This document shows positions 21,936-27,999 of a stretch of 64,000 nucleotides of DNA, one piece after another. How positions within the stretch are numbered: the first letter of the stretch is position 1; every line of letters starts with the position of its first letter. Source of the stretch: Dictyostelium discoideum (lineage: Eukaryota); the NCBI GenBank assembly GCA_000004695.1, contig CM000151.3:6144001-6208000 (forward strand). The letters run 5' to 3'. The notes under the pieces were generated by a model. The model saw nothing but the letters and a program-made list of their open reading frames with translations, had not been told where the DNA came from and did not search any database. A program made the position numbers and the translations under genes.

Positions 21936-24900
21936 TTATTGTTTAAAATTATTATTATTATTATTATTATTATTATTATTATTATTATTATTATTATTAT
22001 TATTATTATTATTATTATTATTATTATTATTATTATTATTATTATTATTATTATTATTATAACTATTGGCATTATTACTACCAAAACTGCCAATATTATT
22101 ATTATTATTATTATTATTATTATTATTATTATTATTATTATTATTATTATTATTATTATTATTATTATTATTATTATTATTATTATTATTATTATTATTA
22201 TTATTATTATTATTATTATTATTATTATTATTATTATTATTTGCTACAGTGGCTGAAGTTTGAGGAAAACCTTGGAGTCTTGCATAAGTTATTTCACAAA
22301 ACTTTGGATGGTTACCCAATTTTTTATTATTGTAAAGTGAACATAATTGAATGATGTCTTGATAATTTACGAAATTAACGAAAGTGTATCCATAATGTGC
22401 CTTTGTCTTTTAAAAAAAAAAAAAAAATTAATGAAATAAAAGAGAAAATAAAATAAAAAAGGTTAGATGAAAATAATAATAATAAAAATAATAATAATAA
22501 TTTTCAATACTTTACAATTGGATCAGTTGGCATATATAAATAATCATAAGCTAAATTATGTTTTTTAAACATTGTATCTAAATTTAAATGAGTGAATTTG
22601 TATGGAATATTTTTAATCATAACAGTAGTTTTTTGATTTACTCCACTACGAATATCATCCAAATTGATAATATGACTATCATCTGTTCCTTCAAAACTAC
22701 CGCTACTACCAGATTTTGAAACATGTGGAGATGTTGGTTGTGATGAATGTTGTTGTTGTTGCTGTTGTTGTTGGTCATGTGAATATCTTGGACTTTGAGT
22801 TGGTGATGATTTTGAATTATTGTAAAGTTGTGAAACATTTAATGGTGGTATTCCAAAGTTTTTATTCTTATAATTCGACTTTTGATTTTGTTGTTGTTGT
22901 TGTTGTGGTTGCTGTTGTTGTTGTTGTTGTGGTTGTTGTTGTGGCTGTTGAGATGATCTTGATCCGCTTTGTGAAGAATTTGATGATTGATTATATTTGA
23001 TATTTTGTTGCTGTTGATGTTGATTCTGTTGTTGATTCTGTTGATGTTGTTGATGTTGTTGTTGTTGTTGTTGCTGATGTAATGATCTAGATGATAGTGG
23101 TTGATTTTCAAAATCATCATTATCATTAATTTTAATAGTATAATTTAAATCAAAATCACAACAAACTAAATCTGAAAATTGATCGGATACATTGAAAACT
23201 GTAGTATTGTTTTGAGATTTCTTACTATGATCCAATACTGAAAGTCTAACTAATAATTTTTTACCAAAAAATACTTGTTTTTTTAAAGCATTAACAGCGG
23301 CAATTGCATCTCTTATATCATAGAATTCAATGAATTTAAGTTTATTTTTTAAATCCTCTCTAATTTCTCTAATTTGGCCAAATTGATTTAATGCTGATGT
23401 TAACATATGAGTATTTGAATTTGTTGAAAATACTGCATCGAAATTAAATAAAACCAAGGTACCATGATCAATTGGATCTTTATTTAAACAATAATAAATT
23501 GATAATCTATCATTAATTATATCATTGTTGTTTTTATTAGTTGATGAATTATTGCTACAACTACTACTATTACAATTAGCAGAGAGTGCAAATACTGAAT
23601 TTCTAATATCAAAATAAGAGATTACAACATGCATTGTACCAGATCTTGTAATATTTTGATAAACTGATTTAATTTCACCATGTTCTTTAAATTTACAAAT
23701 TAAATTTCTCAAATCAATATTAGCATTAGTCTTTATAAGAAGATTTCTACTTGCTTTTCCACCATGAGGACGAATTAAAAATGAAACTTTTCTATCCTGT
23801 GGATTAAATTGATTTGTATCTAATTTTTGTTCAATTTCATTTGATTCTTCATAATCAGCAATTTCTTCTTCTTCTGATTCTTCTGATTCTTCTTCTTCTG
23901 ATTCATCATCATCTTCTTCTTCTGATTCTTCTTTTTCTTCACGTTCTTCTATTTGATTTTCATCTTCTTCCATTTTTTCTCCCTCTCTCCTCTTTAGAAG
24001 AAGTTCATTAGGATTAAAGGTTGTAACAATTGATTCATCTGCACCAAATCGATCGAAATGTTGTTTAGAGATTTCATTTTGAATTCTAATAAAATCATCT
24101 TTAATATTTATAACTTCTGTTGTTTCGTAATCATTTATTACACTATCAAGTTGTGCATCTAAATCATCTAAATCTAAATCATCAATATTGAATGGTTCTG
24201 TTTCTTGTTTTTTATCCTCTATCTTTTTAACGACTATTTCTTTTTCAGTTTCTTCATATGTAATAGTATTTTGTTGTTCACAAACTTTTTCTTTTTCTTT
24301 TTCTTTTTCTTCTTCTTGATCTTTTTCTTGATCTTGATCCTGTTCACCATTATCATAACAATCATCATAGATTTCATCTAAGAAATTAATATCTCTATCA
24401 TTATAATTTTTATTAACGATTGATTCAATAATACTTGAAATTAAATCTTGATGTTGTGCTTGTAAATTTATAGTTTCAACCGAAGAATCTTCTTCAATTT
24501 GATTGAATAAATCTGGTGAAGTTTGAGAATATTCATTTCTAAGAATCATTAGATTTTCAATTCTATTACATACTAATTCCTCTTCCATTTTATACTTTTG
24601 AAGTAATAAATTAACCACTCTTAAATGATCAACATTAAATGGTCTAAGCTCTGATTTACAAATAAGTTGTGTTAATTCATCATATTCTTCTATAATTGAA
24701 TCTGAATCTGATGATGCTTCACCTTCAATATTTGTTTCAATTGCATTAATATCTTGGATATTATCATAATTAATATTATTACTATTATCATTATCATTAT
24801 CATTGTCATTATCATTATCATTATTATTAATATTATAACCATCATTATTGCTGTTGTTATTGCCACTATTACCATTACCATTACCATTATTATTATTATT

Positions 24901-27900
24901 ATTATTATTATTATTATTATTATTATTATTATTATTATTATTATTATTATTATTATTATTATTATTATTATTATTATTATTATTATTATTATTATTATTA
25001 TTATCATTAGTGTTGTTATATTTAACAATAAAAACATTGCTATTACCAAGACTATTATTATAGCCATTATTGCTATTATTATCATTAATATTATTATGAT
25101 TATTATTATTAATAATATTACTATTGAAATTATTATTAGTATTATTATTATTATTGATATTGTAATTATTATTACCATTATTATAACTATTATTATTATT
25201 GTTATTAATAATATTATTATTATTATTATTATTATTATTATTATTATTATTATTATCATTATTATTATTATTATTATTATTATTATTATTATTATAACTG
25301 TTGTTGAATCTCATAATACTAGCATCATTATTAACACAATTACTTAAATAATCAAAACTACTAAATTGATTGCTAAAGCTATTATTAACATGACTATTGC
25401 TATAATTATTGTTGAAATTACCACTGTGGCTATTATTACTATTACTATTACTATTATTATTATAACTACCACTGTTGCTATAACTATTATTGTTATTATT
25501 ATTATTATTATTATTGTTGTTGTTATTATAACCATTACTATTATAACTACTAGATTGATTATTATTATTATTATTACTATTGTTGTTGCCATTGTTATTG
25601 TTAGAGTAGCTACTACTACTATTATTATTATTATTATTATTATAACTACTGGATTGATTATTATTATTATTATTATTATTATTATTATTATTATTATTAT
25701 TATTATTATTATTATTATTATTATTATTATTATTATTATTATTATTATTATTATTATTATTATTATTATTATTATTATTATTATTATTATTATTATAACT
25801 ATTGGCATTATTACTACCAAAACTGCCAATATTATTATTACTATGATTATTGATATTACCATTGGAATGACTATTATAACTTCCATTATTATTACTATTA
25901 TTATTATTATTATTATAGTTGTTAAAACTATTACTATGACTATTAAAACTACCATTATTATTTCTATTACTATTGTAACTATTAAAACTTCCATTGTTGT
26001 TATTATTAATACTATTGTTTTGACCATTGTTGAAACTATTGAAACTTCCATTATTATTACTAAAACTACCATTATTATTACTAAAACTACCATTATTACT
26101 ATGATTGCTATTATTAAAACTATTTTTTATACTTTCTGAATCATTGAAAACTTGAGCTTCATGAGATGGTTCTTTATATCTATGATGATTATTATAGCTA
26201 TTAAAAGATGCATCATCATAATCCTCTTCTTCATCATCATCATCAATCTCAAAGTCTACATAACTTGCTGTATAAGTTTTACCACTAAAGCCTGCTTTAG
26301 GTTTTGGTTTTGGTTTTTTCGTACTTTTTCTATTTTCATTATTATTATTACTGCCATTATTATTATTACTATTATTTTGTAAGCCAAAATAGCTATTGTT
26401 ACTATTAAAATGGCCATTTGCATTATATGTATGAACCAAACTATTACTAACATTATTTGTGGAAACATTATTACTATTAAAATTTGGTGAAACTTTTTGA
26501 ATTAACAATTGATTATTACTACCATTATTACTATTACCACCACTGTTGCCAATGTTACTGTTGCTATTATTACTATTACTATTATTGTTATAGCTATTGC
26601 TATTATTACCATTGGCATTGCTGTGGTTATTATTATTATTATTATTACTGTTGATATTGATATTACTATTATTATTAATATTATTGCTATTATTGCCATT
26701 GTTATTGCTATTGCTATTGTTATTATTGCCATTGTTATTGTTATTATTGCCATTGTTATTGTTATTGTTATTGTTATTGTTATTGCTATTGCTATTGCTA
26801 TTGCTATTGCTATTGCTATTGCTATTGCTATTGCTATTATTATTGCTATTTTTATTGGTATTGATATTATTATTATTATTATTATTACTATTGGTATTTT
26901 TTGAATTTTTACTTGGTGAGAAACCAATAGTGACAGTAGGTGAACCAGAAGCAGATGATTTTGGAGAATCTTTTAATTGATCTTCTTCAAAACCATTATA
27001 TGAGTTTGGATTAGAATTTGTAAAAGAACTTGGGTTAGAGTTTGGATTAGAATTTGGATTAGAATTTGGGTTTGATTTTGGTTTTGAATCAGTGTTTGAA
27101 TAGTTTTTACTAATTGGTATTGGTGGACGATAATTATGATGCGTATTGCTATGAAGTAATGGAGAATAAGTATCGGGAAGTGGTACAATAGCACTGATCA
27201 TTGATGGTGATAATGATGTAGATTGAGAATTGTTGGAATCACTATTATTATCATTATTTTCATTATTATCATTATTGTTATTATTATTATTATTATTATT
27301 ATTATTATTATTATTATTATTATTATTATTATTATTATTATTATTATTATTATTATTATTATTATTATTGTTATTATTATTTCTCTTTTGTAATGAATTT
27401 TTAATCATCTGAAATTTACTACCATCAGCAAATTCAACACTATTTATACTTGTACCAGATGATTGTACAAATGGTGAGAATTCGAAATTTGGACCAAACC
27501 CATAGTTTTCTGGTGGAAGTTTATTTAGAGTACCCATAATATCTGTATCAAAAGCAAAATCTTGATTTGGTCCAAATCCTAAAATATCATATTTATCTCT
27601 CTTTTTACCACTATTATTTCCATTTGTTAAATTCAAATTATTATAACTTACACCAACATGATTATAATTTCTATTATTATTATTATTATTATTATTATTA
27701 TTATTATTATTATTATTATTATTATTATTATTATTATTATAATTATTGTGGTTAAAATTATTATAATTATTATTATTATTGTTATTATTATTATTATTAT
27801 TATTATTGTTATTATTATTATTATTATTGTTGTTGTTATTATTGTTGTTATTGTTGCTGTTTTTATTATTATTATTATTATTATTATTATTATTATTATT

Positions 27901-27999
27901 ATTATTATTATTATTATTATTATTATTATTATTATTATTATTATTATTATTATTATTATTATTATTATTTTTATTTTTATTTTTATTATCAAGATCCAT
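21936..27999 (-). CDS. Mei2-like RNA-binding protein (three RRMs), ~1984 aa with extreme poly-Asn/Gln tracts, 2 exons
   Basis: Exons on the minus strand are 27999..22516 and 22406..21936. The intron 22407..22515 has a GTAAAG donor and a TTTTAAAAG acceptor. RRM2 reads GTLVLFNFD...KLKFIEFYDIRDAIAAVNALKKQVFFGKKLLV and matches Mei2 GTLVVFNLD...HKFIEFYDVRAAEAAL. The C-terminal RRM3 is split by the intron: ...TTVMIKNIPYKF...YDYLYMPTDPI | TKAHYGYTFVNFVNYQ...HPKFCEITYARLQG, matching Mei2 TTLMIKNIPNKY...[23 protein letters not shown]...ASLAYARIQG. Confidence 0.8.
25621..25792. repeat. (ATT/AAT)n coding microsatellite (poly-Asn), one of at least six long tracts in the Mei2-like gene
   Basis: The other tracts are 21947-22057, 22101-22250, 24880-25005, 27272-27372, 27665-27762 and 27861-27972. 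Confidence 0.9.

Follow-up and report, generated by a model that had tools for sequence, protein, structure and literature searches.

Dictyostelium discoideum reportedly carries coding (AAT)n microsatellites that specify poly-Asn, as described by Eichinger et al. in 2005. Dispersed repeats can exchange sequence by non-allelic gene conversion or template switching, and repeats within a single gene can recombine, as in yeast cell-wall genes. The locus described here resembles the coding AAT microsatellites of D. discoideum in having perfect AAT repeats in the Asn frame (22–49 units) whose length varies strongly between strains and species, and it is unlike simple slippage of such tracts in that a non-repeat island was copied between two of them, 3.7 kb apart. 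With ectopic conversion systems it shares a patch bordered by homology at one end and by microhomology at the other end, an unchanged donor and the retention of outer flanks, and the resulting direct repeat, as in these systems and in the recombination of yeast cell-wall repeats, would be able to mediate deletion or duplication. It differs from them in that the arms are pure trinucleotide microsatellite within one gene, and in being known from sequence alone. The exons of D. discoideum contain 3064 perfect triplet repeats of at least 20 units, with very high polymorphism (Scala et al. 2012, PMC3460934).

The window, that is, the whole stretch of DNA analysed, comprises 64 kb of chromosome 2 of the AX4 reference; four of its ORFs match AX4 proteins with full identity. 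The gene of interest is predicted to encode a divergent Mei2-like RNA-binding protein, and its parts are as follows:

21936..27999, minus strand: predicted Mei2-like gene, CDS span including the stop codon; the spliced translation has 1984 aa, 36.7% Asn
22516..27999, minus strand: exon 1, aa 1-1828, with the low-complexity N-terminal part, an acidic region, RRM1, RRM2 and the first half of RRM3
22407..22515, minus strand: the sole intron, 109 nt, GTAAAG...AAAG (GT..AG), which interrupts RRM3
21936..22406, minus strand: terminal exon, with the second half of RRM3, then FPQTSATVA-N49-IGSFGSNNANSY-N37-FKQ-stop
23254..23415, minus strand: RRM2, aa 1529-1582, Pfam RRM_1, 21.7 bits against a cut-off of 20.7
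22266..22632, minus strand: RRM3, Mei2 type, aa 1790-1875, split by the intron, Pfam PF04059

The two exons (27999-22516 and 22406-21936) reproduce the 1984 residues exactly from the window, so the two-exon model of an earlier, sequence-only reading stands. Exon 1 is contained in an open reading frame at 22504-27999, and matches to the RRM3-homologue profile continue up to ...YLYMPTD at the exon end. An open frame is obtained only with the junction 22515-22407, where the reading frame changes and the RRM3 profile crosses the intron from position 46 to position 48; both exon ends are kept, with a gap separating them, in five other assemblies. The independent annotation of a second assembly, GCA_054883475.1, has a product of 1984 residues, likewise with a span of 6064 bp. 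In the 3' flank of the gene, Rfam returned only a sub-threshold chance match to a CRISPR repeat model.

RRM3 matches Pfam RRM_2 (PF04059) at 62.7 bits, the cut-off being 25, over profile positions 1-89 of 97, and it matches the structures 7dus and 6yyl of S. pombe Mei2 RRM3 with E = 1.8e-16. RRM2 is barely above the Pfam cut-off and RRM1 lies below Pfam detection; in phmmer, aa 1405-1587 align to RRM1-RRM2 of many Mei2-like proteins. The best database matches of the gene product are Mei2-like and terminal-ear1-like proteins. Like the described members of this group (S. pombe Mei2; plant AML and TEL/terminal ear1), the protein has a Mei2-type C-terminal RRM, with two putative RRM-like domains before it. 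Unlike them, it adds about 1400 N-terminal residues of low-complexity, largely microsatellite-coded and acidic sequence, its RRM1 escapes Pfam, and the conserved extension K.AL..HF.NS after ...YARIQG is absent, being replaced by FPQTSATVA and a hypervariable poly-Asn tail; the orthologues of the gene also have no such extension. Identity to other Mei2-like proteins is about 30–40%, apparent dictyostelid paralogues (P0038 and P0042) included. Protein searches with the C-terminal half yielded distant Mei2-like proteins only (at most 96 bits) and no orthologue, and the protein libraries searched appear to lack the family of this gene. No Dictyostelium study of the gene turned up in a literature search.

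The gene product has uninterrupted poly-Asn runs of 35, 30, 22, 37, 46, 39, 49 and 37 residues, and the gene has eight perfect in-frame AAT runs of 22–49 units, all within the definition of a coding AAT microsatellite (at least 20 units). Runs of 50–110 residues in at least six places had been claimed, but the longest uninterrupted run is 49, and values of about 100 are reached only by interrupted N-rich stretches. Two of these low-complexity regions contain the same unique island, with the following arrangement:

25684..25840, no strand assigned: mid-gene arm of a 157-bp perfect direct repeat
21948..22104, no strand assigned: terminal arm of the same repeat
25795..25830, minus strand: 36-nt unique core, ancestral or donor copy, encoding IGSFGSNNANSY (aa 724-735)
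22059..22094, minus strand: 36-nt core, derived or recipient copy, in the C-terminal tail (aa 1933-1944)
25657..25794, minus strand: (AAT)46 tract 3' of the mid-gene core, with 5–20 Asn at the orthologous spot
22095..22241, minus strand: (AAT)49 tract, from the RRM3 end to the tail core
21948..22058, minus strand: (AAT)37 tract, from the tail core to TTT AAA CAA TAA

The 42-mer ATAACTATTGGCATTATTACTACCAAAACTGCCAATATTATT occurs exactly twice in the 64 kb, at 22059-22100 and 25795-25836 with 0 mismatches, and there is no third site in the window even if 3 mismatches are permitted; 0 of 100 shuffles gave any match. The sequence had first been given as a 43-bp core in two copies, and while the exact duplication is upheld (at 42 nt), the coordinates were one base off. 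The maximal exact repeat (21948-22104 = 25684-25840) exceeds that length considerably, as its 157 bp are made up of (AAT)37, 36 unique nt and a further 10 nt. The 12-residue peptide IGSFGSNNANSY is in frame in both copies, and the recurrence of its 12-codon string is put at about 7e-13 under a null based on the codon frequencies of the gene's own low-complexity part. Each arm retains its own unique outer flanks, and these are unrelated: the RRM3 exon and the 3' UTR at the terminal site, a GSY/NINNHS and QSSSY context at the mid-gene site, where the core is surrounded by related GSF/GSY repeats. At the junctions there is AAT identity of at least 111 nt on one side and of 10 nt, T + (AAT)3, on the other, where identity past the island ends with AGT vs AAT. 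The description of long (ATT)n around each copy fits the terminal copy (49 and 37 units), but the mid-gene copy has 46 units 3' and only 3 units 5'. The direct repeats flank all three RRMs and the intron. A metagenome scan returned no match to the 36-nt island, and the idea that it represents a dispersed motif was rejected, no other database protein having three of its 5-residue words.

Because protein searches gave no orthologue, the orthologous loci were reached via neighbouring genes, among them the CIA30 gene, for which a homology search supplied the protein identifiers. The comparison covers AX4 and eight other assemblies: GCA_054883475.1, two wild D. discoideum, two of the cryptic sister D. 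cf. discoideum, D. citrinum, D. dimigraforme and D. firmibasis. D. purpureum is uninformative since synteny of the locus is not conserved there.

Each of the six D. discoideum and D. cf. discoideum assemblies has the mid-gene island in its orthologous position, and D. citrinum has it in a recognisable, diverged form, IGSYGNNNVNSY. The IGSFGSNNANSY peptide is constant in these six, the few DNA differences being synonymous, while the neighbouring N-runs vary (46, 46, 14, 20, 5 and 10 Asn after the island). The tail island, by contrast, is found in two of the nine assemblies, AX4 and GCA_054883475.1, and is missing from the other seven tails. The wild D. discoideum tails read ANNI-N16-KNNN-FK* (GCA_054859385.1) and ANNI-N51-FK* (GCA_054859355.1), and those of D. 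cf. discoideum N7SN4SN4-FK* and N32YN13YN4-FK*; the tail of D. dimigraforme is Ser-rich and ends NNNFK*, that of D. firmibasis is VTQFGTFK*, and that of D. citrinum is a pure (AAT) tract of about 56 units. Taking D. discoideum together with D. cf. discoideum, the six tails measure 98, 98, 23, 54, 17 and 51 codons; across the relatives the range is from 5 to 98 codons. As judged from these assemblies, the comparison shows the mid-gene copy to be ancestral and the terminal-exon copy to be derived and specific to the laboratory lineage.

It is unlikely that the AAT-island-AAT sequence is untranslated, as 3' UTR or as an unrecognised intron, with a protein that ends differently and, for example, has the C-terminal helix of RRM3 encoded elsewhere. 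Such an arrangement would account for the missing extension after ...IQG (K.AL..HF.NS in other Mei2-like proteins) and for D. citrinum, with its out-of-frame AAT tract and an ORF ending ...PQTSNK*, and a weak GTAGCA donor with a downstream AG permits a third exon encoding FANKVVQFPYL*. However, the C-terminal part of the RRM3 profile has no match on either strand in 20000-23000, and the hypothetical third exon (acceptor AG/TTCGCG), considered for restoring the helix, was rejected, as it has no profile match and has indels among D. discoideum strains that break its frame. The D. firmibasis protein stops 8 residues past QG with the same ...FK*, the RRM3 frame continues through the variable tract to FK(Q)* in eight of the nine assemblies, and the independent annotation likewise gives 1984 aa. 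Homology and the kept ...FK* C-terminus back the predicted Mei2-like identity, intron and terminal-exon use, all of which the sequence-only reading had proposed.

That the tail copy is ancestral and was repeatedly lost elsewhere, by slippage or deletion in the AAT tract, is very unlikely. AAT tracts do change length fast, as the tails themselves illustrate, and a deletion between the two flanking tracts would excise the island cleanly. Yet separate losses would be required in two wild D. discoideum, two cryptic sisters, D. citrinum, D. dimigraforme and D. firmibasis, and the tail island is the same as the AX4 mid-gene copy, including a GCC codon that is the D. discoideum form, GCT being found in both D. 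cf. discoideum assemblies.

Assembly collapse or mis-joining had also been considered, in which reads from the mid-gene core and its AAT tract were merged into a purely (AAT)n terminal tract. The two arms show 100% identity along their 157 bp, inside long AAT repeats that are hard to assemble, and the AX4 reference is visibly poor in nearby stretches (e.g. 30713-30960). Against an artefact, GCA_054883475.1 agrees with AX4 in structure and in repeat counts, having a tail of (AAT)49-core-(AAT)37 and a mid-gene core-(AAT)46. This assembly is about 99.2–99.6% identical to AX4, and its 25–55 substitutions and 10–28 indels per 21 kb, mostly in homopolymers, mean that it is not copied from the AX4 reference. 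It comes from a series of de novo Nanopore+Illumina assemblies in which AX2-214 is the only laboratory strain (PMC12745789), and from this strain list and its near-identity to AX4 it is most likely AX2-214. As AX2 and AX4 have a common ancestor, agreement between the two assemblies bears out the structure but not its occurrence in the wild. In addition, the unique flanks are correct on both sides of both arms, where a mis-join would exchange them, and the tail, about 300 bp from unique flank to unique flank, would fit single Sanger reads. An artefact is accordingly highly improbable, and the intragenic duplication is real. The term segmental duplication is apt only in part, as the duplicated unit is a 157-bp patch, not a gene segment, and is polymorphic within the species. 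GCA_054883475.1 also has a strange run of 12 substitutions within a different repeat of the gene, so that its base-level accuracy is imperfect in low-complexity DNA; this is a base-level, not a structural, matter.

It is extremely unlikely that the island is a functional short motif (e.g. interaction or aggregation-modulating) selected in the tail, since for all the constancy of the mid-gene peptide in six assemblies despite varying N-runs, with only synonymous DNA differences, the tail copy is restricted to one lineage, tail length and composition are dispensable across the relatives, and no other database protein has the motif.

We favour a recent, lineage-specific event in which a patch was copied from mid-gene to tail by conversion or template switch, in frame in the predicted divergent Mei2-like gene, and we regard this as very probable. 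Two sites of the locus, each with its own outer flanks retained, carry the identical patch, there is a polarity of donor and recipient, and both junctions have homology or microhomology. The duplication itself is real, derived and lineage-specific, with the junctions described above; for the molecular mechanism, the junction anatomy alone points to priming within the AAT tracts, with ectopic gene conversion or template switching, as most likely. In the NC4-derived laboratory lineage (AX4, probably AX2), a 3' end in the terminal AAT tract would have annealed to the long AAT tract that lies 3.7 kb upstream within this gene. Synthesis would then have crossed the island and rejoined the terminal tract via 9–10 nt of AAT microhomology on the island's far side, whether by non-allelic gene conversion or by a replication or repair template switch. 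What the (AAT)n tract of the tail received would be the 36-nt island for IGSFGSNNANSY, together with three AAT units and a portion of the AAT tract after the island. The outcome would be an in-frame insertion in a disordered tail, with 157-bp direct repeats as a side effect. Because the tail is disordered and 5–98 residues long among relatives, the insertion is probably neutral.

For users of the AX4 reference, these results mean that the unusual tail of the gene is genuine and should be left as it stands, and that the AX4 allele is unrepresentative of the species, as wild isolates have no tail island and very different tract lengths. Unequal recombination promoted by the 157-bp repeat, as suggested earlier, is plausible: with the repeats placed around the RNA-binding domains in the AX lineage, recombination could give a 775-aa allele without RRMs, which is relevant if the gene is studied or targeted. 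The tail patch is an ordinary by-product of repeat instability and leaves the present understanding of Dictyostelium repeats unaltered. It is nevertheless a clean natural case of microsatellite-primed patch transfer, in which donor, recipient, junctions and lineage are all legible in the sequence. A more general possibility, which we consider doubtful, is that coding AAT tracts act as dispersed homology arms, with ectopic conversion shuttling unique peptide islands between poly-Asn tracts as a general route to new low-complexity sequence, accompanied by direct repeats. If this were true, such repeats would expose essential domains, here three RRMs, to spontaneous in-frame deletion in laboratory strains, and the locus described here would be the first such case to be documented with its polarity, its donor, recipient and lineage all being known.

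The Mei2-like gene carries a perfect direct repeat of 157 bp (21948-22104 = 25684-25840), consisting of (AAT)37, a 36-nt non-repeat core and 10 further bases, and this is the sole long non-tandem repeat within the gene. That an identical unique sequence is present twice, as the sequence-only reading had proposed, was confirmed by a search of the window with the 42-mer, which gave exactly two sites (22059-22100 and 25795-25836), no third site at up to 3 mismatches, and no match in 100 shuffles. Both cores ("islands") encode IGSFGSNNANSY in frame, and under the codon usage of the low-complexity part of this gene, the probability that this 12-codon string recurs by chance is ~7e-13. 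A database search found no other proteins with the island. The long AAT flanks that had been described hold for the mid-gene core on its 3' side (46 units) but not on its 5' side (3 units), and pure poly-Asn runs measured 22-49 residues rather than the 50-110 initially estimated.

The window has a G+C content of 22%, and four of its ORFs are identical to AX4 chromosome 2 proteins (DDB_G0275997, DDB_G0276009, DDB_G0276011 and a HEAT-repeat protein). Spliced translation gives the following structure for the Mei2-like gene:

27999-22516, minus strand, exon 1
22515-22407, minus strand, intron of 109 nt, GT..AG
22406-21936, minus strand, terminal exon

This two-exon model yields a product of 1984 aa (Asn = 36.7%), the length first suggested and also that given by the independent annotation of GCA_054883475.1. 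Its C-terminus matches Pfam RRM_2, the Mei2-type RRM (PF04059; 62.7 bits, cut-off 25), and solved structures of S. pombe Mei2 RRM3 (E ~2e-16), while RRM2 is narrowly above the Pfam threshold and RRM1 is detectable only via alignment with other Mei2-like proteins. The intron is confirmed by a small RRM3 profile, derived from homologous domains, whose match runs on consecutively from the last part of exon 1 to the first part of exon 2 in a different frame.

Other Mei2-like proteins possess a conserved extension after ...IQG, which the window protein lacks. The possibility that the end of RRM3 is encoded elsewhere was not upheld: the RRM3 profile found no coding match to the extension in 20000-23000, and the orthologues likewise end ...FK* shortly after ...QG (only 8 residues after it in D. 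firmibasis; ...PQTSNK* in the RRM3 frame of D. citrinum). The sole conceivable candidate for a third exon finishing RRM3 contains frame-breaking indels between D. discoideum strains. Use of the terminal exon is thus well supported by these comparisons. In two long, dictyostelid-looking database proteins (P0038, P0042), a helicase-like N-terminal part is fused to a Mei2-like C-terminal part in which the extension is intact (...IQGK..LIQH..); they have the signature DP.(S/T)K..YGY.F.NF.NY in common with the window's protein. Probably they are either merged gene models or a further Mei2-like paralogue of more conventional type.

Because the gene's own family was absent from the protein libraries searched, orthologous loci were located through neighbouring genes as anchors (an FNIP gene, 13246-14193, and a CIA30-domain gene, 29353-30300). 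Three further D. discoideum assemblies were compared (GCA_054883475.1, GCA_054859385.1 and GCA_054859355.1), together with two isolates of the cryptic sister D. cf. discoideum, D. citrinum, D. dimigraforme and D. firmibasis. The 2025 assemblies, made de novo from Nanopore and Illumina data, cover nine wild isolates and the laboratory strain AX2-214 (PMC12745789). Over two 21-kb stretches, GCA_054883475.1 shares 99.2-99.6% identity with the window; it differs from AX4 mostly in homopolymer lengths and is cleaner in one poor stretch of the reference, so that we regard it as independently assembled from a near-identical strain, most likely AX2-214 by elimination.

All six D. discoideum and D. cf. 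discoideum assemblies have the mid-gene island at the orthologous position. At the DNA level it is identical in the four from D. discoideum and shows one synonymous difference in one D. cf. discoideum isolate and three in the other; the Asn run following it varies (46, 46, 14, 20, 5 and 10 residues). In D. citrinum the island is diverged yet recognisable (IGSYGNNNVNSY). The tails are as follows.

Tail after RRM3 in the loci compared
AX4: FPQTSATVA-N49-IGSFGSNNANSY-N37-FKQ*
GCA_054883475.1: same as AX4
Wild D. discoideum GCA_054859385.1: ...AAVANNI-N16-KNNN-FK*
Wild D. discoideum GCA_054859355.1: ...AAVANNI-N51-FK*
D. cf. discoideum GCA_054859205.1: N7SN4SN4-FK*
D. cf. discoideum GCA_054859235.1: N32YN13YN4-FK*
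D. dimigraforme: Ser-rich, ends NNNFK*
D. firmibasis: VTQFGTFK*
D. citrinum: pure (AAT) tract of ~56 units, then TTCAAACAATAA, out of frame with RRM3

As judged from this distribution, the mid-gene copy served as donor for a derived tail copy, and the event is limited to the AX (NC4-derived) lineage. The D. citrinum tract (L011:2549-2740), whose TTCAAACAATAA would read FKQ*, reflects either a genuine truncation, which would place the repeat in the 3' UTR, or an assembly error of one base; the 2008 aa of the deposited annotation agree with neither simple reading.

It is very unlikely that a repeat-driven assembly collapse or mis-join, the alternative raised earlier, made the tail copy, as GCA_054883475.1, assembled de novo with a different technology, has the same structure and the same unit counts (49, 37 and 46), the unique flanks are correct at both arms, and the tail spans only ~300 bp between unique sequences. 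Since each arm retains its unique outer flanks, the product is a patch rather than that of a crossover between AAT tracts, by which 3.7 kb would have been gained or lost. On the 3' side, arm identity spans at least 111 nt of AAT, while on the 5' side it ends 10 nt past the island, at a donor AGT that is AAT in the recipient. Such junctions fit synthesis-dependent gene conversion, or else a template switch during replication, in which the switch would begin within the long AAT homology, synthesis would copy through the island, and resolution would occur in AAT microhomology.

At 30713-30960, AX4, set against the newer assembly, has many G/C runs and small indels, and looks like low-quality reference sequence. 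At 26786-26894, 12 substitutions separate AX4 from GCA_054883475.1 at unchanged length, each AGC or ACC to AAC, turning (AGCAAT)9 ("NSNS...") into (AACAAT)n ("NNNN..."); either conversion homogenised the repeat, or one of the assemblies has a systematic base-calling or polishing error.

A hairpin of ~49 nt (21855-21903, minus strand; core CCATACCTGTAACTCGGTTATGG at 21867-21889), present once per locus, lies ~50 nt beyond the stop codon. Its sequence hardly changes across D. discoideum, D. cf. discoideum, D. citrinum, D. dimigraforme and D. firmibasis, in contrast to its variable flanks. The hairpin has a folding energy of -17.2 kcal/mol (z = -2.8), with an invariant inner stem (CCAUACC/GGU(U)AUGG), an 8-nt loop and compensatory changes in the outer stem, where three pairs are altered on both sides. 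No Rfam family was found for this candidate small RNA or 3' UTR cis-element.

A retroelement-like cluster (38223-43300) adjoins tRNA-Arg(TCT) (43314-43386); 239-bp direct repeats (38223-38461 = 40575-40813) enclose the gag/aspartic-protease ORF DDB_G0276009, and a second pair (40912-41120 / 42676-42881) accompanies the multi-copy 444-aa ORF DDB_G0276011 (17 near-identical copies). As two wild D. discoideum loci (L013, L014) are ~6 kb shorter here, the cluster seems to belong to the laboratory lineage alone. Between the MutS-like and Mei2-like genes, GCA_054859355.1 has two HSP20 genes (L008:353-940 and 3255-3866; L014:1232-1819) and AX4 a single one (~20176-20778). Of the tandem FNIP-repeat paralogues (9565-14193; mutual identity ~80%, with short exact repeats 9565-9630 = 12101-12166) the AX lineage has two copies, whereas L008 has four FNIP-repeat genes, which do not all lie side by side.

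D. discoideum has 3064 perfect exon triplet repeats of at least 20 units (PMC3460934), and an enrichment of poly-Asn/Gln tracts in RNA-binding and regulatory proteins has been reported (PMC9234386). In this species coding AAT repeats are as a rule long and highly polymorphic, which makes the Mei2-like gene a heavy example, though a typical one. We found no earlier description of the patch transfer, a small structural polymorphism whose general kind is known. As the insertion is in frame, tail length ranges from 5-98 codons among relatives, and the D. citrinum tail may be untranslated, a neutral outcome would be the most economical reading. The arms lie 3736 bp apart, that is 3627 coding nt (1209 codons) plus the intron, and recombination between them is predicted to give an in-frame 775-aa protein without any RRM. 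The duplication within this gene is real, derived and lineage-specific, and its general interest is low.
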